Assembly (NCBI GenBank): GCA_030681135.1
Contig: JAUXXF010000010.1
Span: forward strand, 31,539-95,538
DNA length: 64,000 bases
From: Chlamydiales bacterium
Lineage (GTDB): Bacteria > Chlamydiota > Chlamydiia > Chlamydiales > SM23-39
Direction: 5' to 3'
Below are positions 2-54,002 of the stretch, in pieces. Position numbers and translations under genes: made by a program. The stretch's first letter is position 1, and each line of letters opens with the position of its first letter. The notes under the pieces were generated by a model. The model did no database searches, had not been told where the DNA came from, and saw nothing but the letters and a program-made list of their open reading frames with translations.

Positions 2-1546
2 CTCAATTATTTGAATCTTGAATTAAAAAGTTTGACGGAGCTCAACCAATTTTTACAACTCAGTGACTCCAAGACAGTTTTTTCAAAGCAGTCTTTGGCG
101 CTGCTAAAAGATATCGTCAATCGAATTGGTATAAATGACCCAACTCTCGTCATAACCATCTTAAAAAAGATGGAAAGCATCGATAAAACAAAAGTAGAGA
201 CTGTGATTTTGCAAGCAACAAGCCTTGTCGCGCTCTGGCCCTCCTCTCCTTCAAACCTTTCTGCTCAAAAAAATTGGCTCAAGAGATTTGATGGTCTTTT
301 GACCACCTTAAATGATTTTTGTGAGAACCTTATCAAAGAACGAATGGACCGCATCTTGTTATATGGAGATGCACTCAAAGGATGCACTTCAGTCAATTCA
401 TCAATAGAACAGTTTTTTATTGATCTGCTAAGAATTCCCACTGATAGCCCCCCTCCTTCATTCAATTGGCGAATCCATTCGGCAACCATTCCATCAAATG
501 CTAGACAGCACCTCTTAACATTTAAAAAACTGGCCGATTTTCAAAAAAAAATCCCCAAAATCATTTATACGGATTCTCCTGCAATCAATGCAGGAGGGAT
601 AACAAGAGATTTGATCACCAAAATATTTCATGCACTCTGCTCTCAAAAAAATCTAAAGTTCCCAGGAGAGCTTACAGATGGATTTGTATTCCCAAAATTC
701 AGCGACGATTCTTCACTCCACAAAGAGGAAATTGCCTGCTTCGAAGCCCTTGGAACGATGTTTAACTACGCTCTAACTCGCACTCAAGATATTCTAATAG
801 GTCAATATTTTCATCCTCTCCTCTTTGAACTGATCTATGATCTTTCTCAAACAGACATCAACCACATGATATCATCCCCTCTCCCCTTTGACACTCCTTC
901 CCCCGCTCTTCAACCTATTTATGACAAGCTATTAAAAAAACTTTTGCCCCAGAAATATCCTGCCATTTTCGAAACGATTGCTATAGTCGACCGATTTGTC
1001 GACAACGGAAAAGTCCCCCCAGATATACAAGACACTGGGATTCACACCAAAAAAGAATTTATCAAGGCATCTGCCATTGACCTAAGTCTCGCAGCTGTGT
1101 GTTGCATTGCAAGATCTTTCCCTCCTATGAGCCCTCAAGATTGGAGTGAATTCAAAGGGAAGTCCTTTTTAGAATTCTCAGAAAAAATTCAAGGATCCTT
1201 ATCTAAAGAACTCCTCCTACAAAATATGAAATGGGAGCTAGGAGAAGGCGTCAACGATGACGACAAGAACCGAATAGAAGGATTTTTTATCCAATGGATC
1301 ATGGATGCAGAAGAAAAGCTTTTGAAAGACTTTATCCAAGCCATTTCGTCCAATACAAGTCTCTCTCCTCATCAAAAATTTTCCATTCGTTTATATCCAA
1401 ACGGAGAAGACATCCCCAGTTTTCATACCTGTTCAATGACTGTAGACATCCCTTCACAGTATCCCACATATGAATGGTTCAAAGAAAAGCTAGAATCCTC
1501 TCTTCTCTATCTAAAAAAAATGAAATGGGATTTTCATTTCTCTTGA
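2..1546 (+). CDS. HECT-domain E3 ubiquitin ligase-like protein (eukaryote-like effector candidate); 5' end may lie outside the window
   Basis: The frame is open to the window edge, with no in-frame stop in nt 2-10. The C-terminal IPSFHTCSMTVDIPSQYPTYEWFKEKLESSL matches the HECT catalytic-Cys signature (LPxaHTCfnxLxLPxYxSxExLxxkLxxAi). AINAGGITRDLITKIF matches the N-lobe GxDxGGvxREff motif. LLKDFIQAISSNTSL matches the C-lobe ll.Fv.F.TGs segment. Confidence 0.75.
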   Translation, partial: LNYLNLELKSLTELNQFLQLSDSKTVFSKQSLALLKDIVNRIGINDPTLVITILKKMESIDKTKVETVILQATSLVALWPSSPSNLSAQKNWLKRFDGLLTTLNDFCENLIKERMDRILLYGDALKGCTSVNSSIEQFFIDLLRIPTDSPPPSFNWRIHSATIPSNARQHLLTFKKLADFQKKIPKIIYTDSPAINAGGITRDLITKIFHALCSQKNLKFPGELTDGFVFPKFSDDSSLHKEEIACFEALGTMFNYALTRTQDILIGQYFHPLLFELIYDLSQTDINHMISSPLPFDTPSPALQPIYDKLLKKLLPQKYPAIFETIAIVDRFVDNGKVPPDIQDTGIHTKKEFIKASAIDLSLAAVCCIARSFPPMSPQDWSEFKGKSFLEFSEKIQGSLSKELLLQNMKWELGEGVNDDDKNRIEGFFIQWIMDAEEKLLKDFIQAISSNTSLSPHQKFSIRLYPNGEDIPSFHTCSMTVDIPSQYPTYEWFKEKLESSLLYLKKMKWDFHFS

Positions 1547-2954: not shown

Positions 2955-3044
2955 ATGGCCTCAGTCAAAAAGAAACGCAGAGCGAAAATCGCAAAACACA
3001 AACGAAAAAAACGCCGCCGCCGCGACCGTCATAAGAAAAAATAG
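2955..3044 (+). CDS. 29-aa highly basic peptide, bS22-type (AURKAIP1/COX24-like) small ribosomal protein candidate
   Basis: ATG at 2955 is preceded by AAAGGA 5 nt upstream. My translation is MASVKKKRRAKIAKHKRKKRRRRDRHKKK followed by a stop. As far as I recall, it resembles actinobacterial bS22 ([21 protein letters not shown]...) and the Bacteroidetes version ending in ...RHKKK. It is too short for the supplied ORF track. Confidence 0.6.
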   Translation: MASVKKKRRAKIAKHKRKKRRRRDRHKKK

Positions 3045-3049
3045 TCTTT

Positions 3050-3109
3050 AGACCTCTTTCGAATGTAAGGATTCGTCGATTTTAAGAACCTTCATTTCAA
3101 AAGAGGTCT
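3050..3109. repeat. mini copy of the family-1 palindromic element
   Basis: AGACCTCTTTcgaatgtAAGGATTCGTCGATTTTAAGAACC...AAAGAGGTCT. It has the same terminal inverted repeat and the same AAGGnTTCGTCGATTTT core as the full copies. Confidence 0.7.
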
Positions 3110-3131
3110 TTGATAGAGGACCTCTTGTTTT

Positions 3132-4958
3132 ATGTGGAAGTATCCAAAAATCTATGATGTCCTCGTTATAGGGGCAGGTCACGCCGGCTGCGAGGCAGCG
3201 CATGCTGCTGCCCGGATGGGCGCCAACACCCTCCTACTTACCATGAATCTCGATACGATCGGCAAAATGAGCTGCAATCCTTCAGTCGGAGGGACTGCAA
3301 AAGGCCATATTGTTAGGGAAATCGACGCTCTAGGTGGGCTCATGGGGAAAGTGGCCGATCGCAATAGCATTCAATTTCGAATGTTAAACGCCTCAAGAGG
3401 ACCTGCTGTCCGTTCTCCCCGCTCTCAGGCAGACAAGGCCGCCTACGCCCTCGACATGAAACGGAGGCTAGAACAGACCCCCAACCTCGAAATCCAACAA
3501 GGCACTTCTGAATCACTTCTCGTAGAAAATGGCCGAATCACTGGAGTCTCTACGCAAGAAGGGATCATCTATCAAGCAAAAACTGTCATCCTCTCATCTG
3601 GCACTTTTATGAGAGGCCTTTTACATATCGGTCAGACCAATTTCTCTGGAGGGCGTAGCGGCGATAAAGCAGCCAGCGGGCTATCTCCCAGCCTCGAGTC
3701 GCTTGGATTTGTGTTAGGCAGACTGAAAACAGGCACCCCGCCGCGAATCAATTCCAGAAGCATCGATTTTAGCCGTTGCGAAGAGCAGCCAGGAGATGAA
3801 GGCGTCGTCTTTTCTTACGATGATCCTGAAGAGCGAATGGCTCAAGTGTCTTGCTATATCACCTACACAACTCCCAAGACTCATGAGATCATTCGTAATA
3901 ACTTAGATCGCTCCCCCCTCTACGCAGGAACAATTACAGGCATCGGACCTCGCTATTGCCCCTCCATCGAAGATAAAGTCGTTCGATTTGCCGACAAAGA
4001 GCGTCATCAAATTTTTCTAGAACCAGAAGGGCTCACCACTCAAGAAGTCTATGTCAATGGGATCTCTTCCTCTCTTCCTTTTGATGTCCAATTAGAAATG
4101 ATCCACAGCGTCATCGGGCTCGAACAAGCAGAAGTCATGAGACCGGCTTACGCCATTGAATATGATTATGTAAAGAGCGACCAGATCTATCCAACTCTTG
4201 AAACCAAGCGCGTGGAAGGACTATTTTTGGCAGGACAAATCAATGGAACAACCGGTTATGAAGAGGCGGCTGCACAAGGACTGATAGCAGGAATTAATGC
4301 TGCTTGCAAAACGCTCGGCAAACCGCCTTTTTCTTTGAAGCGCAGCGACGGCTATATTGGCGTCATGATCGACGATCTCATCCGCTTTGAGCTATCGGAG
4401 CCTTACCGCATGTTCACAAGTCGAGCAGAACATCGCCTTTTACTCAGACAAGACAATGCTGATCTCCGTCTTCGGCCCATGGCCTATTCGCTAGGACTCA
4501 TTTCTGAAGAGCAATATCAAAGAACTTTATACAAACAGCAGATCCTCGACCAAGAAAGAGAGAGGCTATCCCGCGCGTTTAAAACCATCGAAGGGAGAGG
4601 CTCTTCTCTAGCGCAGCTCATCTGCAGGCCCGATTGGACCTACCAAAAAGCCCTCGAACAATTCCCTGATGTTGTCGCCGATTTTGGCTTAGATCTCAAC
4701 CAACAGATCGAACTACACCTTAAGTACGCAGGCTATATTCAAAGACAAACGAAAGAGGTAGAAAAGCTCTCTCACCTCGACCAGATCCGTATTCCTCCAG
4801 ATCTTTGCTATGCAACCGTCGTTGGGCTAAGGACAGAGGCTAAACAAAAATTACTTCGTTTTACCCCAGAAAACCTCGGCGCCGCTTCTCGCATTTCAGG
4901 AGTTTCCCCCGCTGACATCTCCATCTTAAGGATTGCTCTACAAAAGCGGCGCTCATGA
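3132..4958 (+). CDS. mnmG: tRNA uridine 5-carboxymethylaminomethyl modification enzyme MnmG (GidA)
   Basis: N-terminal FAD motif [14 protein letters not shown], the [11 protein letters not shown] motif, and full-length family resemblance (608 aa). Confidence 0.97.
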
Positions 4959-5665
4959 AACCAGTTCTTCATTGGTTGGAGCTCGATCATCTTTCCATCT
5001 TTGAGCAACTTCAGCTGGAAGAGGCTCTCGTTCGAACAGACGCGCGCAATGTATGTATCGTCAATCCTGGATCTGCCAGGGCCATTGTTATGGGCATCTC
5101 AGGAGAGCCTAAGCTGCTACTGAATACCGAATCTGTCTTTCGCGATGAAATCCCCGTGATCAAACGTTTTAGCGGAGGGGGCACCGTGATTGTCGACGAA
5201 AACACCCTATTTGTCTCTTTTATCTGCAATCATGACGCACTACCAATCACCCCTTATCCAGAGCCTCTGCTTCGCTGGACGTCAGAGCTCTACCAACAAA
5301 GCTGGCAAATCCCCTCTTTTGCCCTTCAAGAGCAAGATTATGCTATTGGGTCTCGCAAATGCGGCGGGAATGCCCAGTATATCCGCAAAGGTAAATGGGT
5401 CCATCACACCTCTTTCCTGTGGGATTACAAAGAGACGAATATGGACTATTTGCAGCTTCCTGCTAAACGGCCTAAATACCGCGCAGACCGGCCTCATTCA
5501 GAGTTCCTTTGTCGCCTAAAAGACGTTTCTCCCTCAAAAAAATTCTTAATTGATCAACTAAAAAATGAACTTGTAAAGCGGTTTTACATTGAAGATTTTT
5601 GTCTAAAAAATCTTTCCTTTCCACCCCACAGGCAAGCTACGCAGCAGATATCCATGAAAAGCTAG
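4955..5665 (+). CDS. lplA: lipoate-protein ligase / biotin-lipoate A/B ligase family protein
   Basis: [21 protein letters not shown] and [22 protein letters not shown] match the LplA/LipB catalytic core. It overlaps mnmG by 4 nt. I recall the same gidA-lplA adjacency in Chlamydia. Confidence 0.8.
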
Positions 5666-31793: not shown

Positions 31794-34406
31794 TTAACGA
31801 ACGAGCCGGCCCTCTTCGTATTCGCTAATCGTTACTTCTCCTGAAGCGTCATATTTATACTTTGTCCCATCTAACTGATCATAGACAAAGGTTTGCTGGA
31901 TATAAGGAGAGCCGTCTTCATAATACTTATTAAAGACTCCGTGACGCATTCCATCAACGTACTCTGCTTCAAAAAGAAGAATTTGATCCTGACTCCATGT
32001 TTGACTCAGCCCGTGGAGCTTATCAGCCTCATATTGGCAAGTAGCTGCTAATGTTCCATCTTCAAAAAAGGTTCTCTCTTCTCCTTGCCGTTTTCCATGG
32101 GCATAAGGAGTTTGCCGAAATATCTCGCCACTAGGAAAGTACTGTGTGAGTAGACCCTGCTCCTCTCCATTGACAAATTCCATAGAGGCAAGCAAAGAGC
32201 CTTCTGGCGAATACATTTTTTCTAAACCTTCTTTGATGCCTGAAACATAAGAAGTCTCCAACATTTTCACGCCGTGTTGATTATATTCAACAGCGAGCCC
32301 ATGCATCCGATCCTTTTCAAAATAAGCCCGCAATGCCTTCACTTTCTCGCCCTTTTCATTGGGAGGATAATACACTTCATGAAGACCCTGTTTTAGATTA
32401 TTATGATAATGGAAGACGATTTCGCGTAAATCAGGCAAGCGCTGGAAAAAACGTCCCTCCATTTTCCCTTCGCTATAAGAAGCCTCTTCTAATAAAACAC
32501 CTTGTTCATCGAAAAGTTGTTTGAGACCGTGCAATACACCATGGCTATAGCAAACAAGAGATTGCAGAGTTCCACTTTGATAATAACTCTTCTCTTCTCC
32601 ATGAAACTGCCCTTGTTCGTCATAATGGAGCAATTTGCTCATCCGATCGCCCTCTTGCTGAGAGCTCTCAGTCCGAGGATAGTACTCTATATGTTTACCT
32701 ATAGGCTTATCCATAGAGTAGTTTTGGACAAAATGAACCGCTCCGTCAGGATACCAGGCCTTAGATTCCCCATCTAATTGATCGTTTGTAAAATGCATGA
32801 CTCGAAGGAGCTGCCCTGTTTCATCATACCATTTATGTTCCCCAACCTTCTTCCCTTCGCTAAAGGCGAACTCCGTTTTGATTTGTTCCTTATTCCACCA
32901 AGTAGCGACTACCCCTTCAAAAAGACCTTTTTTATAAAATGCTTCTGCAATTAAGTCTCCTTGCTCATTCCATTCTCTATGCCAACCTTCTCTAAGGCCC
33001 CCCATAAACTCTGCACGAAATTTTATATGCCCATTTTCATACCATTCAGAATGGATTCCTTCTGGCTGATCCATTTCAAAGTAAGAGTCTATCTTGGCAG
33101 CTCCGTCAGCATACCATTCAGCGAACTGGCCATTTTTTACTCCATCAACAAAAAAACCTCTGCAAGCAAGAACCCCATTTTCATGCCACTGCTCATGAAT
33201 GCCATCTCGCTTGTTTTGTTTGTAATGGGTCAAAGTCTTGATTTGTCCACCTGGATAATACTCTTTTTGCTCTCCCTCATACTGGCCAGCTGCATACTGA
33301 TACTCAGCTTTTACAACTAGGTTCGGATACCACTCTCGAAAATTGCCTTCAAGCTGATCATCCTGAACGAAATACTCACGAATATACCGTCCTTCCTCAT
33401 CGAATTCCACAATAGGAGAAAGCAAAGAGCCGGTCTCGTCATATTCAGCAAGAAACGCAAGACCTCCTTCAGGATGATTACGCCAGTGTTTGCCTACAGC
33501 TTTTCCATGAACAAATTGTCCTTCTCCAAGAAGAGTTCCATCTTCTGCAAAAAACTGCTCCTTGCCCTCTTTTTTCCCTTCCCTGAAGAAGATCTTATGA
33601 GACTCTTTCCCATTTTTATAGTAAGCGATATGGGATCCTATCGGCTCTCCTAATCTAAAATCCATCATCTGAGAAACATTAAGATCTTCATCGTAAACAA
33701 TGACAGCAGGCGTTTTCCCATTTCCATGAAGATTTCCGTCTAAAAATTGTTTTTGCATTTTTAGGCGACCATTTGGATGCCACTCTGTCATAAGGCCGTG
33801 AATTTTTCCTTGTTTATAAGGAATAGAAAATACTTTTAATCCACTTTCAAGATATTGGACGACTTCTCCTTCTAATTTTCCCTTAACGTAAAAGCCTTCT
33901 TCAGAAATTTGACCATTTTCATAAAAGCTTTGAGCCGCCCCTTCTAATAAGCCATGATCAAAGGAAGCGAGAGCTCTCAGCTTGCCACTGGGAAACATGG
34001 TTCTCACTTCTCCATGCAATACCCCTTTGTCATACGTTGAGATCTGAATCATCTCCCCTTGCTGCGTCCAATCGACCCTAAATCCATGAGGAACTAATAA
34101 AGGCTCTTGCAGCTCAGCCTCAGCATCTGTTTTGGGGAGAGGTAAAAGATCGTATTCCGCCTGCAAAGCTCCATTTGGATAGAAATGGACCTGTTTAACA
34201 GGCTTTTCGCCTTCAACGCTCGGCTCATGATAAATCACCGTTTTTACAGATCCTTGGGGGTAAGATTCTAAGACCTCGATGCGCCAGTTAGGCTGCCTCG
34301 GCTTCAAATTCACCTGCAAAGGAGGTGGCTGGCCAATTCCATGGACTCCAATAGGAGATCCCAGAGCAAGAGTTCCCACGATGATCAAAAACAGAAATTT
34401 CCTCAC
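31794..34406 (-). CDS. secreted MORN-repeat-variant protein (870 aa)
   Basis: Signal peptide followed by about 30 copies of a 23-24-aa G-x-W/Y-x-x-Y/W-Y-x-N/D-G motif (e.g. GEQKEYYPGGQIKT, GIHSEWYENGHIKF). Confidence 0.85.
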   Translation of the reverse strand: MRKFLFLIIVGTLALGSPIGVHGIGQPPPLQVNLKPRQPNWRIEVLESYPQGSVKTVIYHEPSVEGEKPVKQVHFYPNGALQAEYDLLPLPKTDAEAELQEPLLVPHGFRVDWTQQGEMIQISTYDKGVLHGEVRTMFPSGKLRALASFDHGLLEGAAQSFYENGQISEEGFYVKGKLEGEVVQYLESGLKVFSIPYKQGKIHGLMTEWHPNGRLKMQKQFLDGNLHGNGKTPAVIVYDEDLNVSQMMDFRLGEPIGSHIAYYKNGKESHKIFFREGKKEGKEQFFAEDGTLLGEGQFVHGKAVGKHWRNHPEGGLAFLAEYDETGSLLSPIVEFDEEGRYIREYFVQDDQLEGNFREWYPNLVVKAEYQYAAGQYEGEQKEYYPGGQIKTLTHYKQNKRDGIHEQWHENGVLACRGFFVDGVKNGQFAEWYADGAAKIDSYFEMDQPEGIHSEWYENGHIKFRAEFMGGLREGWHREWNEQGDLIAEAFYKKGLFEGVVATWWNKEQIKTEFAFSEGKKVGEHKWYDETGQLLRVMHFTNDQLDGESKAWYPDGAVHFVQNYSMDKPIGKHIEYYPRTESSQQEGDRMSKLLHYDEQGQFHGEEKSYYQSGTLQSLVCYSHGVLHGLKQLFDEQGVLLEEASYSEGKMEGRFFQRLPDLREIVFHYHNNLKQGLHEVYYPPNEKGEKVKALRAYFEKDRMHGLAVEYNQHGVKMLETSYVSGIKEGLEKMYSPEGSLLASMEFVNGEEQGLLTQYFPSGEIFRQTPYAHGKRQGEERTFFEDGTLAATCQYEADKLHGLSQTWSQDQILLFEAEYVDGMRHGVFNKYYEDGSPYIQQTFVYDQLDGTKYKYDASGEVTISEYEEGRLVR

Positions 34407-35953: not shown

Positions 35954-37156
35954 TCAATTTGCAAAAGAACTCACATCAGTTAAAGGTAGCAGGACCGATA
36001 ATAGCACAAAACCAACGACGGCTCCTAGAAATAATAACAGCACAGGCTGGGCGATCGCTGAGACATAAGCAAACGTTTTTTCCAGATCTTCTTCATAGAT
36101 TTCTGCAATCTGTTTCATCATAAAGGCAAGCCTGCCTCCCTCTTCTGCAATCCCCAACATCCTCGGGACAAGAGGAGGAATAAAAGGATGATGCTGAAAC
36201 GCCAAATACAGCTTTTCTCCCTGCTTCATATTTTCTTCAGCCTGCTTAATCACCTCTTCTAAGACTGGATGATGCATCACAGCCCTCGCTTGCGATAAAG
36301 CAGCTATTATAGGCACCCCTCCTTCTAATAAGGCTCCGCAAGAGCGGGAAAAGCGGACGAAGGCAATTTTGATAAATAACCCTTTCAAAAGAGGCAACCG
36401 AAGAACCAAAGCTGTTAGCTGAGAGCGCCAAGGACGATAAAAAATCGCTAAACAGACCGCTCCTATGAAAGCCAAGACCGCTGTTAATAAAAACAGCTTG
36501 GCTTGACAGGCCCATCTACTGACAGAAAAAACAATGACGGTTAAAGGATGAAGCTCTCTTCCTTCAAAGAGCTCTGCCATGGAAGGGACGACAAAAAATA
36601 AAAGAGCAGCTAACACAAAAAGACAAAAAGTCCCCAAAAGAGAGGGGTAAAGAAGGGCCGAAATCGTTTGCTTGCGCACTTGAAGCTCTTTCCCGATCCA
36701 AAGAGCGATCTGTTCTAAAGACTCTTTCAGGCGACCTGTTTTTTCTGCATTTGCAACCATGGATACATAAAGAAGATCAAACGTCCTCCCATGGCGGCTT
36801 AAACTTTCAGATAAAGGCTTTCCACTACGCACCTGATCACAAAGATCCAAAAGAAGAGGATGAGCTTTTTGTCCTTTATATTTTTCTTCTAAGGCAGTAA
36901 GCACCTCAAAAAGAGGCAGTCCCGCTTGGAGAAGCCGAGCCATCTCTCGCGTTAAATTCATCACCTCTTGCCTGGAAAGGACAAGGCCTAGCTGCTCACT
37001 GGCCAAAGGGGTGACTTGAATCACTAACACTTCACGGCGCTGTAATTTCACTTTGGCATCTTGTAAATTATCCGCATCAACGGTGCCCATAAATTTTTTT
37101 CCGGAAGGCTGCAGAGCGACATAACGAAACAAAGCCATGCTATCCTCTTTCCTCAT
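35954..37156 (-). CDS. gspF: type II secretion inner-membrane platform protein GspF
   Basis: Two T2SS-F repeats and three TM segments, about 400 aa. An alternative ATG at 37138 (MALFRYV) is possible. Confidence 0.93.
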   Translation of the reverse strand: MRKEDSMALFRYVALQPSGKKFMGTVDADNLQDAKVKLQRREVLVIQVTPLASEQLGLVLSRQEVMNLTREMARLLQAGLPLFEVLTALEEKYKGQKAHPLLLDLCDQVRSGKPLSESLSRHGRTFDLLYVSMVANAEKTGRLKESLEQIALWIGKELQVRKQTISALLYPSLLGTFCLFVLAALLFFVVPSMAELFEGRELHPLTVIVFSVSRWACQAKLFLLTAVLAFIGAVCLAIFYRPWRSQLTALVLRLPLLKGLFIKIAFVRFSRSCGALLEGGVPIIAALSQARAVMHHPVLEEVIKQAEENMKQGEKLYLAFQHHPFIPPLVPRMLGIAEEGGRLAFMMKQIAEIYEEDLEKTFAYVSAIAQPVLLLFLGAVVGFVLLSVLLPLTDVSSFAN

Positions 37157-38732
37157 TGAAGCAAGTCACTCGAAGCACCTCAGCGCTCGTCGTCAAACCA
37201 GAGGCCGCCAACGCCGCCCCCCGTTGAAATAAGGTCACCATCCCCTCTTTGATGGCAATATGGCGCAGTTCTTGAGCATCTTGGCTTTTGAGCGTTTGTG
37301 ATTTAATCTTTGAAGTTAAAACCATCAGCTCATAAATGCCATGCCGCCCTTTATATCCCGTGCCAAAACATACATCACAGCCAGCTCCTTTATACAGACG
37401 CCCGCCCGCAAGTTCGTCTTTTTTCAACCCGAGTTCTCCGAGCTCATCTTGAGAAGGGACGTAAGGAACTTTGCATCCAGGACAAATACGCCTGACAAGC
37501 CTTTGCGCCAAGACAGCCAAAATAGAAGAGGCGAGCAAATAAGATTCTATCCCCATATCTGCCAAACGGGTCAACGCAGAAGGGGCATCATTCGTATGCA
37601 GCGTACTTAATACAAGATGGCCAGTAAGCGAAGATTGAATGGCAATCTCGGCCGTTTCTTTATCTCGGATCTCTCCAATCATGATCACATCGGGATCTTG
37701 TCTGAGAATATGTCTCAGGCCTTTTGCAAAATCCAGCTCGATCCTGGCGTTGACATTCATTTGCGAAATGCCCGGCAATTTATATTCTACCGGATCTTCA
37801 ATCGTCATAATATTCATATCGAGCGCATTAATCTCTGAAAGAGCGCTATAAAGGGTCGTTGTTTTCCCACTGCCGGTAGGACCGGTCACCAAAATAATCC
37901 CCTCCGGAAGATGAATAGACTTTCGAAGTTTTTTGAGCAGCTGATCATCCATTCCAATTCGATCAAGACCTAAAAGGACATTGCCCTTATCCAAAATCCT
38001 CAGGACAATCCTTTCTCCATAAATAATCGGCAGAGTACTGACACGAAAATCGATCTCTCTTCCTCCGTGGCGAAGCTTCATGCGGCCATCTTGAGGCAAT
38101 CTATGCTCGGCAATATCCATCTTCGACATCACCTTGATACGCGTAAGCACTTGATTTTGATATTCTCGAGGAGGAGTATGCCGCTTTTGAAGAACCCCGT
38201 CGATCCGATAGCGCACGGATAGCCCCTCTTCTGTAGGCTCAAAATGAATATCAGACGCCCCTTGCTGAATGGCTTCAAGAATAATGGCATTGACCATTCG
38301 AATCACAGGATTATGACCCGACTGCTCTAAAAGATCATAGCCTTCTAATGCATCTTCTTTTTGCCCTTCACTTTCTCCTTTATCCAAATCGCTAAAAAGC
38401 TGACGCGTCTCTTCCTCTTTTTGATGATAGCAACGCTCGATGGCCAATTCGAGCACAGATTGAGGACAATAGACGGGATGAATGGTTTTTTTTAAAAAGA
38501 GACGCAGCTCATCTAAAGATTCTAAGTCTAAGGGATCGGAAATAGCTACGGTTACGCGATCCGCCGATTCTTCTACAGGAAGAACCTTTTTTTGTTTGGC
38601 AAACAGATAGGGAATTAAAGATATCTGGTCTCTGACTAGAGAAAAATGATCTAACTCTTCTTGAACAGGAATCCCAAAACGTTCTGCTTGCTCTCGTTTA
38701 TTATTGGAAGCTTCCATATCAATACATATCAA
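37140..38732 (-). CDS. gspE: type II secretion ATPase GspE
   Basis: Walker A motif GPTGSGKTT, MIGEIRD, and the tetracysteine CPGC...CDVC. Confidence 0.96.
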   Translation of the reverse strand: MICIDMEASNNKREQAERFGIPVQEELDHFSLVRDQISLIPYLFAKQKKVLPVEESADRVTVAISDPLDLESLDELRLFLKKTIHPVYCPQSVLELAIERCYHQKEEETRQLFSDLDKGESEGQKEDALEGYDLLEQSGHNPVIRMVNAIILEAIQQGASDIHFEPTEEGLSVRYRIDGVLQKRHTPPREYQNQVLTRIKVMSKMDIAEHRLPQDGRMKLRHGGREIDFRVSTLPIIYGERIVLRILDKGNVLLGLDRIGMDDQLLKKLRKSIHLPEGIILVTGPTGSGKTTTLYSALSEINALDMNIMTIEDPVEYKLPGISQMNVNARIELDFAKGLRHILRQDPDVIMIGEIRDKETAEIAIQSSLTGHLVLSTLHTNDAPSALTRLADMGIESYLLASSILAVLAQRLVRRICPGCKVPYVPSQDELGELGLKKDELAGGRLYKGAGCDVCFGTGYKGRHGIYELMVLTSKIKSQTLKSQDAQELRHIAIKEGMVTLFQRGAALAASGLTTSAEVLRVTCFNEERG

Positions 38733-41076
38733 AAAGCGTTTTCAAACTATTGCTAAAGAGCCTTTTCCTTTCCTTGGCTTTTGCAGCATCGAGTCTCTCT
38801 AAAAACTCTGGAATATCGCCTGCGCGCTTCATGTATTCACACTGGCGAATCCTTCGCAAATCTTCTACAGGATCTTGCACAATATGAGGCGTTAAGAAAA
38901 TAAACATCTCTGTATTAATTTCATTTTGCCTCGTCAATCCAAACAGTTTTCCAATCCCTGGCAAATCTCCCAAAAAGGGGATTTTTTCTCGAATATCCTC
39001 TTCTGTTTTTCTCCTTAATCCTCCTAAAATGACAGTCTCCCCATCGGCAATTCTCACCTCATTTTCTATATGTCGGCGAGTCACTGGAGGTCTGTCATTT
39101 GCTGTCATAAGAGTCGTATCAAAGGTGATATTAGACTTCAAAGACACAAACCCTGGATGGGCTACATCTTCCTGCTCTTCTAGGTCCGCGGATTGAACCG
39201 TCGGAGTTAGGGTAATGGTCGTTCCGTACTGCGCACGCGTATAGGCCTGCTCAACCGTCACGCCGCCGGCGGTATTTAATTGGATAGCTCCGTTATTAAT
39301 CGAAATTTCCTCAAGGATTGAGATCGTTGCCTCTGTCTGATTAATCGCCAAGATAGAGGGGTTGGCGTTAATCCGAATGTCCTCTTGAGCTAATAAAAAA
39401 TTAAACATCAAATCAACAGCAGGAAAAGCTCCGCTTTCGTTTCGGCTGAATAAATAGCTCAAAACGCCTCGATTGGAAGAAAAAAACCTATTGCCCTCCA
39501 CATTCCCCTCAAGGGCCTTCCCAATAGGAAGATTTACGGCCGACTCCGTATTAAAGTTGACAGAATTTTGGTTTTTGCCGCTCGCGTTGGCCCCTATTTG
39601 CAATAAATTAAAGCCAACCTGACGCCGATCTTGTAATTTTTTCTCCACTAACATCACATCGATCTGCACCATTTTCTTTGGCACATCGAGCTTTTTCAAC
39701 AAACTTTTGATCTTCGTGAGCTCTTCTCTTCGAACAACCATCAAAATCGAGGTCGTTTTTGAGTCGACAACAAAATTTCCAAAATTTGACTTAGGTTTCT
39801 TCTCAATAATTCCTGGTTGAACAAACGGAGGATTTACAGGAAGTACCGGATTGAAGGCTGTACTTTTATCTGGAAACACCTGTCCAATGCTCGGTTCAGG
39901 GGGAGGGGCAGGAGGAGGAGGAACTACAGCCGGGGGAGGAAATTCTTGCTTTCTTTCCAAACTGACGCCAATTAAAGAATCATAAACCCTCTCCAGCACA
40001 TCAGCGATGTCTTCGGGATCAGAATGTTTACAAGTATACCAATAGATCACCTTTTCAGCCGGATCTTCGAGTTGAGACTCTAATTCCTGTAAAATTCTTT
40101 GTCCCCGTTCTACAACATCCGTCTCTCCCACCAAAACTAGTCCCTGAGGCAGCGTCAACGTGACCAAATCATCTGAAGTCGAAGGATAAAAATTAGGCCT
40201 CGACTTATTTGCACTGTCGGCAAAGGTCGCCTTTAAGACTTTTTCTGCTTCCTGAGATTCTATTTTCGTTAAAGGGACAAGACGAACAATTTTCCCCTGT
40301 TTTTTTTCCCAGACAGCGGCATAAAGCCCTAGCAATTTATCAACCGTCTCCTTTGTAGAAACGATAGCCACTTTCGAGCCAACCGCTTGGATCAAGGTCT
40401 GCTTGGGATCTGAAAATCTCTCAAAAAAGGCCTGGACAGATTTAATCTGCTCTGGTGGAGGAGAAAATACATAAAAAATCCTCGCATGGTTTGCAAATAA
40501 ACTCAAATCATCCGACCGGCTCACAATCCCTTCGATAGCAGAAGGATCGAGCTTCAAAATGTAAAGCTGCTTTACAAAGGTATTTAATTTTTTTACGCCA
40601 ATGCCGTTTTGAGACAAAATCATCTCAATCATTTCATTCCAAGATTCTTTAGGCAAAGGGACATTAGAAAAGAGAGAGAGCTTCATAGCGCTCAGCTCTT
40701 GCGGTATGATGTAGAGGTAATCGCTGGCTCCATATTCCATAATCAGTTGGGCCAAAGTCGTTTCGCCCACATCCCAAAGAGCATAAGAATCTTCTAGCCC
40801 TGAAGACTGTTCGACTGAAGCTTTGTGCCATTTTTCTTCCAAAGAGCGCATCTCTTCTTTAATTTTCACAGCTTGTACAAGCAATGATCGATAAGCTGGC
40901 TCATCAACCTCTCCCTCGGAGGAAAGCTCCCTTGCGTATTCAAACGTCTCTTTGAGTTGAGTTTTTAGCTCATTGATCCGACCATTAAACAAAGAAGCCC
41001 CCTCAAGATCTGCCTGAAAAGAACCTTCTGAGAAAACAGCTGTAGCTATTAAAGAGGCCGCAAATATCCATTTCAT
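38719..41076 (-). CDS. gspD: type II secretion secretin GspD
   Basis: Signal peptide, N-domains, a Pro-rich insert, and the secretin C-domain (ETVILGGL...IPFLGDLPGIGKLF). Confidence 0.93.
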   Translation of the reverse strand: MKWIFAASLIATAVFSEGSFQADLEGASLFNGRINELKTQLKETFEYARELSSEGEVDEPAYRSLLVQAVKIKEEMRSLEEKWHKASVEQSSGLEDSYALWDVGETTLAQLIMEYGASDYLYIIPQELSAMKLSLFSNVPLPKESWNEMIEMILSQNGIGVKKLNTFVKQLYILKLDPSAIEGIVSRSDDLSLFANHARIFYVFSPPPEQIKSVQAFFERFSDPKQTLIQAVGSKVAIVSTKETVDKLLGLYAAVWEKKQGKIVRLVPLTKIESQEAEKVLKATFADSANKSRPNFYPSTSDDLVTLTLPQGLVLVGETDVVERGQRILQELESQLEDPAEKVIYWYTCKHSDPEDIADVLERVYDSLIGVSLERKQEFPPPAVVPPPPAPPPEPSIGQVFPDKSTAFNPVLPVNPPFVQPGIIEKKPKSNFGNFVVDSKTTSILMVVRREELTKIKSLLKKLDVPKKMVQIDVMLVEKKLQDRRQVGFNLLQIGANASGKNQNSVNFNTESAVNLPIGKALEGNVEGNRFFSSNRGVLSYLFSRNESGAFPAVDLMFNFLLAQEDIRINANPSILAINQTEATISILEEISINNGAIQLNTAGGVTVEQAYTRAQYGTTITLTPTVQSADLEEQEDVAHPGFVSLKSNITFDTTLMTANDRPPVTRRHIENEVRIADGETVILGGLRRKTEEDIREKIPFLGDLPGIGKLFGLTRQNEINTEMFIFLTPHIVQDPVEDLRRIRQCEYMKRAGDIPEFLERLDAAKAKERKRLFSNSLKTLFDMY

Positions 41077-43760: not shown

Positions 43761-45617
43761 TTATTCCAATCGCCTTTTCTTAAGCGGAGGACTTCTTGAT
43801 CCATCGAAAATTGATGAAGATTCTGATTTCTTGAGCATGACAGAATCAATCACTTGAATAGCATTCACCTGTTTTTCATCCTCAATCAAAAATTCAGCAG
43901 CTTCATAAATCGCTTCTTTTTCGTTTTCGGGAAGTTTGCCAAGTTCCTCTCTTGCAATTTCAAGCAAAGCTCTTATCAAACGCTCCCGTTTGCCAAATAC
44001 AATCTCTTCAAAAGAATATGTCCAAGAATTAGAAATATGAGATAATTTATGAAAGACTCTACGTCTCATCTCTTCTGAAAGCGCTTGATATTTTCCTCGA
44101 AGAACATCTTTGCTCTCTCCTCGATAAATCGCTTGGCAAAGCTGAGCAAAAAGCGTTGTACAAATATAACTATTACAAGCTTCGTGCTTAGGGCCAGTCA
44201 TCCACGTTATGTCCTCTCCCTCTCCATTTAGAATAGGCTCAACGGGTTCTTCATCTAAATCTTTATTAAAGAGACACAATAGCGGGTTGCCCTCGAGAGT
44301 TTTTTTCTCTAACTCAAGAGAGTAGAGAGACGAAGGTAAACTTGTCAGCTGATTGTGATGAAGGGAAAGAACCCTAAGATTGTTAAGCTTGTCAATAGAG
44401 CTTGAAATGTTAACAAGCTGATTATTATTAGCCACAAGCGAGTTCAGTGGCAAGTTGAAGATTTCTTCGGGGAATTCTTTAAGGTCATTATCTTCAACAT
44501 ACAATCTTTTCAGCTCACCAAGCTGACCCATTTCTTCTGGCAGCTCTGTCAGGTGATTACTTCCAAGATCTAGTTCTTTTAGAGAAGTAAGATTCCCAAT
44601 AGAATCAAGATCAGCCATTTCATTTTCAGATAAATCAAGAATTTTCAATCCAGAAAGTCCCGTGATAGCTGTAATATCTGTCAGTTGATTTTTGGCAAGA
44701 TTCAGTTCTCTTAAAGAAGAGAGGTCACTAAAACATTCGGGAAGAGTTGCAATCTCATTATCTTTAAGCTTCAAAATTCGTAAATTTCTGAGCTCTACAA
44801 TAGAATCGGGAAGCTCTATAAGAGTATTTTCCTTAAAAATTAATACTTCCAACTGAGAAAGGCTTATGATTGGATGAGGAAACTCTGAAAAGCAATTCCG
44901 GTTGAGAGAAAGATGTTTTAGCCGAGTCAAGCTGGAGATCCACTCAGGAAGCATTTCTAACTGATTATCATTCAAACAAAGCTCTTCTAACCCTGTAAAT
45001 AGTTTTATTTCTGGAGGAAGAATTGTTAGTCCCAAATCGGAAAGATCTATTCTCGTAATAGATTGGATCCTTTCTTGCCCTTGTGACGAATAGAAAATCG
45101 CACGAATTTGTTCAGCTGGTAAAGGGTTGATTCTATTTATTCTACTCCACACCTCTTCAAGAGCTTCATCAAAGAGCCTTTGCTCTTTTAGATAATAATG
45201 AGGGCTTAAAACGCTCAACTCTTTAGGGATCTGAGCTCCTCGGCTTCTCAGTTCAGAGGTCAAGGCAAGGAACCTTGAGAAATAGTCAGGCTCCTCATTT
45301 TCAGAAAGCTGAAGCTCTGCATGAGCTCGGAGCTGAGCATCGACCATTAAATGACGAAAACCAATAAGAGGCATCTTTTCAAACTCCGGCCCATAGATCT
45401 TGGGCAAATAATCGTCTGCTATATCCTTCCAAAGCTTTGATACAAGACGTATGCTTCTTCCCGTTGCCACCGCTTCTTTGCTCTCATGAGGATCGTTCGA
45501 TAAAAAAGATCCGACAGAATACTGCATGATTCTAAATAATGCAGGTTCTAAGCTGCTAAGCGCACCAATAAGATCAAATTTCGAAGGCTCAGAGGATTCT
45601 CTAACTGGACTTGTCAT
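43761..45617 (-). CDS. leucine-rich repeat protein with an F-box-like N-terminus and a C-terminal NLS
   Basis: About 12 LRRs of the form LxxLxxLxLxxNxLxxLPxxI. The N-terminal LSSLEPALFRIMQY...IRLVSKLWKDIADDYL resembles an F-box (..LPxEiLxxIxxxL...rlVcKrWrxLxxD). The C-terminus is SRSPPLKKRRLE. Confidence 0.8.
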   Translation of the reverse strand: MTSPVRESSEPSKFDLIGALSSLEPALFRIMQYSVGSFLSNDPHESKEAVATGRSIRLVSKLWKDIADDYLPKIYGPEFEKMPLIGFRHLMVDAQLRAHAELQLSENEEPDYFSRFLALTSELRSRGAQIPKELSVLSPHYYLKEQRLFDEALEEVWSRINRINPLPAEQIRAIFYSSQGQERIQSITRIDLSDLGLTILPPEIKLFTGLEELCLNDNQLEMLPEWISSLTRLKHLSLNRNCFSEFPHPIISLSQLEVLIFKENTLIELPDSIVELRNLRILKLKDNEIATLPECFSDLSSLRELNLAKNQLTDITAITGLSGLKILDLSENEMADLDSIGNLTSLKELDLGSNHLTELPEEMGQLGELKRLYVEDNDLKEFPEEIFNLPLNSLVANNNQLVNISSSIDKLNNLRVLSLHHNQLTSLPSSLYSLELEKKTLEGNPLLCLFNKDLDEEPVEPILNGEGEDITWMTGPKHEACNSYICTTLFAQLCQAIYRGESKDVLRGKYQALSEEMRRRVFHKLSHISNSWTYSFEEIVFGKRERLIRALLEIAREELGKLPENEKEAIYEAAEFLIEDEKQVNAIQVIDSVMLKKSESSSIFDGSRSPPLKKRRLE

Positions 45618-52442: not shown

Positions 52443-53537
52443 TCAAGCTCTACTTCCCCTATTCATTAATAAGGCGTCAGCAAGGACAAGCGCTGTCATC
52501 GCTTCAACAATAGGGACCGCTCGAATAGCTACACAAGGATCGTGCCGTCCGGAGTCCGGGAGTTGAAAAGAGGCTCTTTCTCCTTTAAGACTGACTGTTT
52601 GCTGAGCTTTTTTAATACTTGAGGTAGGTTTAAATGCCACGCGAAAAAAAAGAGGAGATCCGCTTGAAATTCCTCCAAGAGCCCCTCCAGCAAAGTTCGT
52701 GACTGTATGAACGCGTCCATTTTCATCGAGATCGAAAGCGTCATTATGCTCTGAGCCTTTCATTCGTGCGCCAGCAAAGCCAGAGCCTATTTCAAACCCT
52801 TTTGTTGCAGGAAGAGAGAGCATTGCAGAGGCGAGCATACTTTCCAGTTTGTAATAAATTGGTTCTCCTAGTCCCAAAGGGACATGGGCCACGCAGCCAA
52901 GAATGCCTCCGAGAGAATCTTTTTCCTCTTTTATCTGAAGAAGCTTCTCCATCATCTTTTGAGAAGCCTCTTCATCAGGACAAAAAATAGGATTGGCATA
53001 CGTCTTTGCGCGAAGTTTTTTCAGATCAGATACGTCAATAGACCCGCTCGCAATCGCTCCTATTTCAAAGACGAAAGCAACGCAATCTATCTCATAGAGA
53101 GCGAGTAATTTTTTAGCGACAGCGCCAGCTGCAACTCTCGCTACAGTCTCTCGCGCTGAAGCCCTTCCTCCACCTCGATCATCAAAAATCCCATATTTCC
53201 CAAGATAGGTGAAGTTTGCGTGTCCGGGGCGATAAAGATCTTTGATGGCGCTATATTGAGAGGAATCTGCATCTTTATTCGAAATGAGAATTGCGATCGG
53301 AGCTCCTGTTGTCTTTCCTTCAAAAAGCCCCGACAAAATCTCTGCTCGGTCCGGCTCTGACCTGGAAGAAGTATAGACGCTTTTACCAGGCTGTCTTAAT
53401 CGAAGTTCTGCATCTATGTCTTCTTGCGAAACAGAAAGTCCTGCAGGACACCCATCGATCACCACTCCCATTGCAGGGCCATGAGACTCACCAAAAGTCG
53501 TTATTCGAAAGGATTGTCCAAAAAAATTAGAGGCCAT
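52443..53537 (-). CDS. aroC: chorismate synthase
   Basis: FGESHGPAMGVVIDGCPAGL, GGGRASARET, and 364 aa in length. Confidence 0.96.
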   Translation of the reverse strand: MASNFFGQSFRITTFGESHGPAMGVVIDGCPAGLSVSQEDIDAELRLRQPGKSVYTSSRSEPDRAEILSGLFEGKTTGAPIAILISNKDADSSQYSAIKDLYRPGHANFTYLGKYGIFDDRGGGRASARETVARVAAGAVAKKLLALYEIDCVAFVFEIGAIASGSIDVSDLKKLRAKTYANPIFCPDEEASQKMMEKLLQIKEEKDSLGGILGCVAHVPLGLGEPIYYKLESMLASAMLSLPATKGFEIGSGFAGARMKGSEHNDAFDLDENGRVHTVTNFAGGALGGISSGSPLFFRVAFKPTSSIKKAQQTVSLKGERASFQLPDSGRHDPCVAIRAVPIVEAMTALVLADALLMNRGSRA

Positions 53538-53543
53538 AAACCA

Positions 53544-54002
53544 TCAATCAACATCCATCCACTGCGCAGGAATCTTCTCATAGATGAGGATCCTCTTTTC
53601 ATAGATTTCTTTCAATGATTCAAAAGGCCTCGTTGCATCGACAAAGGAGGGAATTTCTTCTTTTAATATCCGCTCTTTAATCGTCTCAAAACTGGCTTTT
53701 AAATAGACGAGCTGACCTATGTTTTGCAAATGACCCACATTTACAGGATTCAACACAGCGCCGCCCCCCAAAGCAATGACTGCATTTAAAGAAGCTTGAA
53801 GTTGATGAATCGCCTTTGCCTCTAAAGAGCGAAAAGCCTCTTCTCCTAACTTGGAATGAATCTCTCGAATGGGAAGTTGTTCTCCGTATAGCTTGACAAT
53901 AAGGTCATCTGTGTCAATGAAGGGGAGGTTTAATAATAAACTTAGACGCTTTCCATGATAAGTTTTCCCACACCCCTTAAACCCAAATAAAATAATGCTC
54001 AT
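53544..54002 (-). CDS. aroK: shikimate kinase
   Basis: P-loop GFKGCGKT, a FIDTDD shikimate-binding motif, ALGGGAV, and 152 aa in length. Confidence 0.88.
   Translation of the reverse strand: MSIILFGFKGCGKTYHGKRLSLLLNLPFIDTDDLIVKLYGEQLPIREIHSKLGEEAFRSLEAKAIHQLQASLNAVIALGGGAVLNPVNVGHLQNIGQLVYLKASFETIKERILKEEIPSFVDATRPFESLKEIYEKRILIYEKIPAQWMDVD

Follow-up and report, generated by a model that had tools for sequence, protein, structure and literature searches.

HECT-type E3 ubiquitin ligases are regarded as a eukaryotic invention that arose at the root of eukaryotes (PMC4327156). Among bacterial effectors, SopA of Salmonella and NleL of enterohemorrhagic Escherichia coli have a bilobal ligase domain with a C-terminal catalytic Cys and use the ubiquitin-charged E2 of the host (E2~Ub), and they share no sequence similarity with HECT (PMC7943720); MavJ of Legionella pneumophila is reported to be a remote HECT homologue by profile-profile comparison and to be active in transfected cells (PMC7542358). 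The chlamydiae of protists have expanded eukaryote-like ubiquitination families, namely F-box, BTB and RING/U-box proteins (PMC4209131), and the one ligase to have been characterised from a Chlamydia-like organism is SneRING of Simkania, a RING ligase (10.1101/2024.11.19.624306). HECT occurs zero times in the former report, and the latter, a preprint, brings it up solely to give background about ligase classes and SopA/NleL; in the searchable literature, we found no paper linking HECT to chlamydiae. Here, we describe a HECT-ligase gene whose 3′ part lies at the edge of a 64,000-nt stretch of DNA from a Chlamydiales bacterium (GenBank:GCA_030681135.1, contig JAUXXF010000010.1, positions 31,539 to 95,538 of the forward strand; hereafter the window), together with the protein family to which its product, P0001, belongs. 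We consider it likely that P0001 is a true E3 ubiquitin ligase of the HECT type that belongs to a large, diverged, bacterium-borne family and acts in the host cell.

The eukaryotic HECT E3s (PF00632; HUWE1/TOM1, the NEDD4 family, SMURF, E6AP and UBR5) share with P0001 and its relatives a C-terminal bilobal catalytic domain, a D-x-G-G-x-x-R motif, an H-T-C box about 35 residues from the end, a G-F with the Phe at position −4 (the −4 Phe), and variable N-terminal substrate modules. They differ in that the chlamydial family is encoded by bacteria, is only 13-16% identical to them, has a middle N-lobe that cannot be aligned with theirs and has invariant positions of its own (G649, W683 and W632); in addition, the eukaryotic enzymes carry WW, C2 and RLD modules, whereas the chlamydial family carries LPxxxR repeats, DUF4116 and leucine-rich repeats (LRR). 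The proposed way of working with host E2~Ub is common to SopA/NleL, which are set apart, by description and by the matches listed below, in that their N-terminal region is a beta-helix, whereas HECT profiles detect the chlamydial family, whose N-termini are helical or repeat-containing. MavJ, likened here by description only, is also an effector of an amoeba-associated intracellular bacterium, one that belongs to another phylum and uses Dot/Icm secretion. The giant-virus HECTs (Mimivirus R349, Hokovirus, Tupanvirus and Fadolivirus) are likewise carried by residents of protist cells and were matched by Foldseek with probability 1.00 and E ~1e-8, but they differ in their family scores and in the GC content of their contigs (see below). 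The known chlamydial ubiquitin effectors follow the same lifestyle logic, and a RING protein is found in this window too; in contrast to a HECT ligase, they are adaptors or RING-type proteins and form no thioester intermediate.

The window portion of the gene (positions 2-1546, + strand) is one open frame of 514 codons plus a stop codon, with its 5′ end open at the window edge. It had been suspected in the initial annotation that the N-terminus was missing, and extension upstream confirmed this: the full-length protein of 765 aa was recovered from public assemblies, an identical, intact gene of 765 codons being present at 3043-5340 of locus L001. The window holds the 3′ 1545 nt, corresponding to residues 252-765 plus the stop codon, and the 251 N-terminal residues (5′ 753 nt) lie beyond it. 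An orthologue of 750 aa (P0002), obtained from another sample, was 78% and 73% identical over the window fragment and the full length, respectively. The portion in the window begins with the tail of an alpha-helical N-terminal region (residues 252 to ~405, positions 2-463), which is the fastest-evolving part, has helices taken from a low-confidence model and is presumed to be a substrate or targeting module. It is followed by the HECT N-lobe (residues ~406-655, borders approximate, positions 464-1213), presumed to be the E2-binding lobe and assigned from an AlphaFold model, a Foldseek alignment of ~400 columns and a profile match of 37 bits to the TOM1 N-lobe, and by the HECT C-lobe (residues ~656-765, positions 1214-1543), in which positions 212-299 of the Pfam HECT profile correspond to window residues 422-503 and to which the profile-to-PDB C-lobe matches also map.

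Three HECT motifs had been quoted in the initial annotation, and all of them were found on the + strand, at positions 581-628 (AINAGGITRDLITKIF), 1319-1363 (LLKDFIQAISSNTSL) and 1412-1504 (IPSFHTCSMTVDIPSQYPTYEWFKEKLESSL). The first, in the N-lobe, reads I-N-A-G-G-I-T-R-D, corresponds to the HECT pattern (L/V)-D-x-G-G-x-x-(R/K)-(E/D) and aligns with V-D-A-G-G-V-T-R-E (within GVDAGGVTREW) of yeast TOM1, the family consensus being D-A-G-G-[LV]-[TS]-R-D-F. The second, at the start of the C-lobe, is the counterpart of the canonical LLxFxTGSxxxP and has the family consensus LxxFVxAITGSxTL. The third is the catalytic-Cys box and contains H-T-C, in which the TGT codon of Cys728 (window residue 477, positions 1430-1432), the predicted ubiquitin-thioester cysteine, is located 37 residues from the C-terminus, close to the 35 or so estimated beforehand. 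The codon of Phe762, the −4 Phe, is at positions 1532-1534; the role of this residue is known from established HECT biochemistry.

With a profile of the two orthologues, HMMER was run exhaustively against 1.84 billion cluster representatives and returned 282 proteins at E<=1e-3, of which 157 were at E<=1e-10 and 31 at E<=1e-30. A word-indexed homologue search was nearly blind to the family (2, 4 and 4 hits), which exhaustive HMMER alone revealed, and when the GTDB species genomes were scanned with the HECT alignment, no match was obtained. Because public collections already tag some members with Pfam HECT automatically, calling the domain is no novelty; what appears not to have been described before is how large and coherent the family is and that bacteria own it, and no paper on the family was found in the searchable literature. 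Nearly all members match over the C-terminal ~350 residues only, the matched domain always ending 3-25 residues (typically 8-12) before the member's own C-terminus, and the N-terminal parts vary in length and content. Recognised N-terminal modules were DUF4116 and LRR (9 and 3 of 60 members, respectively), and a helical LPxxxR repeat region is common to P0001 and eight other members; in P0001, the repeats are at residues 87, 126 and 197, all upstream of the window. Two kinds of candidates were rejected: P0085 (4382 aa, 22 stretches) was a false positive, being a low-complexity E/P/V-rich repeat protein, and weak tblastn C-lobe matches in L003 and L007 were attributed to chance, one lying inside lipB and the other on the wrong strand.

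Conservation computed over 124 aligned domains revealed that Cys728 is a C in 124 of 124, in line with the expectation, set out in advance as a possible refutation, that the catalytic Cys be conserved in orthologues. In the remainder of the H-T-C triplet, H726 and T727 are conserved at 90% and 87%, respectively. In the N-lobe motif, the figures were 94% for G449, 99% for G450 and 94% for R453, and the position of N447 in P0001 is a D in 95% of the family. Near the C-terminus, F762 is an F in 75%, and the preceding position, D761 in P0001, is a G in 76%. Family-specific positions were also identified, namely G649 (G in 100%, in an I-x-G-x-L-S-K motif), W683 (W in 95%) and W632.

When a 60-member profile was compared with the PDB sequences, only eukaryotic HECT ligases were matched, with HUWE1 (1.8e-18), TOM1 (2.1e-17) and SMURF1 (2.7e-17) on top and ITCH, WWP1, RSP5, NEDD4 and E6AP among the further matches. 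The N-lobe and the C-lobe were matched separately; the N-lobe match to TOM1, of 37 bits, paired GiDaGGvtRDf with GVDAGGVTREW, and C728 aligned with the catalytic H-T-C of TOM1. Individually, 53 of the 60 members matched Pfam HECT, the best at 5.7e-19, and one metagenomic member (L159) covered positions 19-300 of the 306 in the Pfam profile with 69 bits. An AlphaFold2 model of the HECT region in the window, built from the family alignment and without templates, had a predicted local distance difference test score (pLDDT) of 92.4 and a predicted template modelling score of 0.88, with high confidence from about domain residue 41 onward. Foldseek comparison of this model with the PDB gave HECT domains as all 50 best matches (UBR5, NEDD4, SMURF1, HUWE1 and E6AP), with probability 1.00, E ~1e-11 and ~400 aligned columns, and the model thus has the bilobal HECT fold in the C-terminal region of P0001, with an N-lobe and a smaller C-lobe. 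For the full-length protein, the model from the two-sequence alignment had a pLDDT of 33, and the helical N-terminal region is to be taken only as a low-confidence hint. Because the profile and fold matches are HECT only, P0001 is, by these comparisons, a true and very diverged sequence-level HECT homologue in a bacterial genome and not a mimic of the SopA/NleL type. The initial annotation of a eukaryote-type HECT domain in bacterial DNA is thereby supported.

To our knowledge, chlamydiae have no ubiquitin, E1 or E2 of their own, and since the bacterium lacks a ubiquitin system, P0001 would act in the host cell after export. Chlamydiae deliver effectors by type III secretion. In the mechanism we propose, P0001 would be exported to the host cytosol, most likely via type III secretion; its fast-evolving helical N-terminal ~400 residues with the LPxxxR repeats would choose the host substrate or location; the N-lobe, for which E2 docking is predicted, would bind a ubiquitin-charged host E2; and ubiquitin would be passed to Cys728 as a thioester and from there to a substrate lysine, aided by Phe762. 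It is from sequence that we infer expression, secretion, E2 use, thioester formation, substrates and ligase activity, and the most likely outcome would be the attachment of ubiquitin to host-cell proteins. Residues 15-48 of P0001 contain no acidic residue, which is compatible with a type III secretion signal and is not diagnostic of one. Effector-like traits were observed in the lineage-specific low-GC insert that holds the gene, tandem paralogues elsewhere in the family, the variable N-termini, and the presence of RING and LRR proteins in the same window.

Several results weigh against this reading. The Pfam HECT search proposed in the initial annotation was significant for the window fragment (28.6 bits, E=1.4e-6, curated cutoff 23.9), but the match was weak and restricted to the C-lobe (profile positions 212-299 of 306), and it was lost with full-length P0001 and P0002. 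Global TM-scores against the PDB HECTs were 0.33-0.56. The middle of the N-lobe, which is the E2-binding part of canonical HECTs, could not be aligned by sequence to eukaryotic HECTs, and where the family has T-G-S at the start of the C-lobe, P0001 has a degenerated S-S-N. None of the RNA runs searched holds the HECT gene sequence, and no type III secretion gene is present within the window, where type II genes only were found. As to the first of these points, domain-sized pieces of P0001 and P0002 passed Pfam HECT again, with 29.7 and 27.5 bits, respectively, and pieces with the N-lobe alone gave no Pfam HECT match for either orthologue. In a phmmer search of the fragment against all PDB sequences, HECT ligases were on top (SMURF1, 6e-4; NEDD4, 1e-3), with the H-T-C of the fragment paired with the catalytic H-T-C of SMURF1 and NEDD4 and with a second, weak stretch in the N-lobe. 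The signal in the single sequence, as judged from these scores, is above chance, but only just, and it is fragile. An NCBIfam scan of the fragment returned no family, and the precomputed Pfam field is empty for both P0001 and P0002, so that routine annotation misses the HECT domain in them. The low TM-scores plausibly fit the known mobility of the lobes in HECT domains.

The alternative that fares best, although unlikely, is that P0001 has the HECT fold and the reactive Cys but plays a non-standard role, such as sequestering or discharging E2~Ub, using another ubiquitin-like modifier, or modifying only itself. Such a role would be in keeping with the divergence of the middle N-lobe, with the degenerated T-G-S and with a family-specific N-lobe module of ~50 residues that is duplicated in one member. 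On the other hand, the −4 Phe and the G-F C-terminal motif, which are specific to ligation, are retained; the N-termini are long, variable and modular, as expected of ligases that select substrates; and the HECT domain is under purifying selection. The duplicated module (consensus IPxxIYxKLLKxYLxxxYPxxF...NGxV) was noticed in P0050 and is equivalent to residues ~543-592 of P0001; its duplication suggests an inserted subdomain, possibly the E2-binding one.

A slightly more doubtful possibility concerns origin, namely that HECT ligases have a long independent history in Chlamydiota, and perhaps in other host-associated bacteria, with transfer near the origin of eukaryotes or from bacteria to eukaryotes. 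It is based on the hundreds of mutually diverged lineages, the invariant residues peculiar to the family, a remodelled and in places duplicated module in that part of the N-lobe to which E2 binds in canonical HECTs, and the family's own presumed substrate-binding repeats. If the radiation has the age that its divergence suggests, an early or a bacteria-to-eukaryote transfer would follow, and either one would be informative about the source of the HECT mechanism. Identity between the P0001 model and the HECTs of eukaryotes and giant viruses is only 13-16%, and no significant BLASTP match to a fungal HECT was obtained (E=0.46). The scores against the family hidden Markov model (HMM) did not overlap: bacterial members had 135-400 bits, and the giant-virus HECTs from scans of viral and metagenomic contigs with a hand-made degenerate motif had 18-57 bits; the true members recovered in these scans had 239-267 bits on contigs with a GC content of 0.38-0.43, and the HECTs of giant-virus type were on GVMAG contigs or on metagenome contigs with a GC content of 0.21-0.26. 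Solved eukaryotic HECTs reached <=70 bits against the profile of the related A3 family. Because the score classes of members and of giant-virus and eukaryotic HECTs are separate and identity is remote, the bacterial HECT family forms, by these measures, a discrete and old clade, and by the same scores the giant-virus HECTs are not its source at any recent date. It was also noticed that two low-GC contigs of giant-virus type (L087, 2390-8604; L163, 1500-7714) each have two adjacent HECT genes of ~1000 aa, scoring only 45-48 bits against the HMM of the bacterial family. Since HECT is regarded as having arisen at the root of eukaryotes, eukaryote-to-bacterium transfer is the most economical origin, but an ancient one, followed by diversification in bacteria. 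The earlier proposal of horizontal acquisition from a eukaryotic host therefore holds only in this deep sense, and a recent capture does not agree with the identity and BLASTP values given above; as far as the sequences indicate, the gene was not captured recently from the current host.

It is quite unlikely that P0001 is a non-secreted or decaying relic without a role in the host, or that it functions inside the bacterium. The protein evolves fast (73% identity versus 99% for the adjacent DnaB), its sequence occurs in no RNA run and the gene is missing from related chlamydiae, all of which would fit such a relic. In a comparison of the P0001 and P0002 genes, with dnaB as the flanking control, the synonymous rate (dS) and the ratio of nonsynonymous to synonymous rates (dN/dS) were 0.40 and 0.009, respectively, for dnaB (amino acid identity 99%) and 0.36 and 0.45 for the whole HECT gene (73%); for the HECT domain (residues 370-765) they were 0.29 and 0.35 (82%), and for the N-terminal region (residues 15-369) 0.45 and 0.52 (62%). 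Both orthologues have an uninterrupted open reading frame (ORF), every segment of the HECT gene has a dN/dS below 1 (0.34-0.52) and all catalytic residues are kept, which argues against decay; the gene is thus intact and under purifying selection. The HECT protein changes ~40 times faster than DnaB, and fast change together with purifying selection is a pattern usual for host-interaction proteins. A function inside the bacterium would find no partner there, given that chlamydiae lack ubiquitin, E1 and E2, and PADLOC gave no defence-system match for the HECT protein or its neighbours.

The genomic context bears on yet another explanation, namely that the gene was recently transferred from the current eukaryotic host or that eukaryotic DNA was mis-assembled onto a bacterial contig, which we regard as very improbable. 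The MnmG encoded in the window was 80% identical to that of the metagenome-assembled genome (MAG) 'bacterium BP5.bin41', 63-68% identical to those of MAGs labelled Parachlamydiaceae, Chlamydiales or Chlamydiota, and <=55% identical to those of other phyla; by this marker, the HECT gene belongs to an uncultured environmental chlamydia. The source was a groundwater metagenome, with weaker relatives in lake, soil and peat metagenomes. In related chlamydial loci, the gene order dnaB ... mnmG-lipB ... sdhB is conserved, and the interval between dnaB and mnmG is 0.5-1.5 kb without a HECT gene. Here, this interval is 5.4 kb and consists of a DUF900 alpha/beta hydrolase gene (outside the window, at 1908-2807 of L001, − strand), the HECT gene and a 365-aa ORF, whereas in the orthologous locus L002, which has a DnaB 99% identical, it contains the HECT gene only. 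The three genes of the insert have a GC content of 0.39-0.41, compared with 0.46 and 0.49 for dnaB and mnmG, respectively. A low-GC insert missing from related chlamydiae would be expected of a recent arrival, as would the eukaryotic ancestry generally assigned to HECT (PMC4327156). Nevertheless, the arrangement dnaB-HECT-mnmG was found in the 215-kb contig of the window itself and in the Logan assemblies of two other runs, and because it recurs in these independent assemblies, a chimeric assembly is excluded; the reading frame is uninterrupted as well. A recent transfer is further contradicted by the remote identity to eukaryotic and giant-virus HECTs, the non-significant fungal BLASTP, the split in the family HMM scores together with the ceiling for solved eukaryotic HECTs, and the ~280 diverged clusters already in existence.

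Other members of the family also reside in bacterial DNA. Of 30 proteins whose clusters were looked up, two carried an organism name, both being annotated from one Chlamydiales MAG, and three members with readable context were on bacterial contigs, carrying genes for SecY, RpoA, ribosomal proteins and the chlamydia-specific CT_504-like and DUF562 families (L084), RecJ and a fused SecDF (L086), and L33, FtsX, TGT and RND efflux proteins (L083). HECT paralogues are arranged as three in tandem in L086 (6258-11701) and as two ~4 kb apart in L084 (9992-16857), the window having one, and these arrays indicate local expansion of the gene family. Because a member in L155 (1625-3925, − strand; 267 bits) lies among RmuC, DUF2065, DUF455 and bacterial SH3 genes, a context that is bacterial and not distinctively chlamydial, the family may reach beyond Chlamydiota.

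The weakest alternative, a convergent or structure-only HECT mimic of the SopA/NleL type, would accord with these two being the only structurally characterised bacterial HECT-like effectors (PMC7943720) and can be set aside as scarcely credible, in view of sequence profiles that tie the family to eukaryotic HECTs in both lobes, the absence of SopA and NleL from the 60 best profile and 50 best fold matches, and an N-terminal region that appears helical in the low-confidence model, not a beta-helix.

The 365-aa ORF of the insert (positions 1617-2714, + strand; GC 0.41) starts 71 nt downstream of the HECT gene, has no Pfam family and is unassigned in function. Because it is absent from L002, as is the DUF900 hydrolase, it is probably accessory to the HECT gene rather than an obligate partner of its product. 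The terminator scan found no terminator-like site between the HECT stop codon (1546) and the start of this ORF (1617), and around the 3′ end of the HECT gene, promoter-like and terminator-like sites were no more numerous than in shuffled sequence. A terminator-like hairpin with an 11-bp stem was noticed at positions 3101-3126 (+ strand), directly before the mnmG start (3132).

The initial annotation had also counted HECT as a third E3 class in the window besides RING and F-box. The RING part stood: a RING-finger protein of 167 aa is encoded at positions 15659-16162 (+ strand; zf-RING_2, 30.4 bits, cutoff 27.3), just upstream of a tolQ/exbB-like gene and the tolB-pal cluster, and represents a second eukaryote-type E3 domain in the window. 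The F-box part did not: Pfam scans of the window ORFs of at least 150 aa gave no F-box, the first 200 residues of the LRR protein encoded at positions 43761-45617 included, and a strict regular expression for the F-box matched nothing either. The latter (− strand, 618 aa; GC content at third codon positions 0.33), with no recognisable N-terminal domain, is a candidate effector; LRR is also an N-terminal module fused to HECT in other family members. A MORN_2-repeat protein of 870 aa is encoded at positions 31794-34406 (− strand, 167 bits), a type II secretion cluster (GspF, GspE and the secretin GspD) at positions 35954-41076 (− strand), and a DUF6602 ORF, between the succinate dehydrogenase genes and tatD, at positions 12763-13425 (− strand). 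A 1091-aa ORF at positions 55786-59061 (+ strand), with several matches to HTH_21, the Tc3-transposase HTH and HTH_32, is situated inside a shikimate cluster (aroC, 52443-53537; aroK, 53544-54002; aroA, 59087-60448; aroB, 60357-61358); from its unusual architecture, it is possibly a domesticated or fused protein derived from a transposase.

In the textbook view, HECT is eukaryotic and bacteria imitate it only structurally, whereas the bacterial lineage described here has, by its profile and fold matches, a true HECT homologue. Through this locus, a family of ~280 diverged clusters comes to light, in which N-termini are modular and tandem expansions occur. If P0001 and its relatives are active, thioester-forming E3s would join the effector repertoire of protist-associated chlamydiae, and the family would provide compact and diverged HECT domains in which the mechanism could be studied, as well as a handle on the evolutionary origin and spread of HECT.

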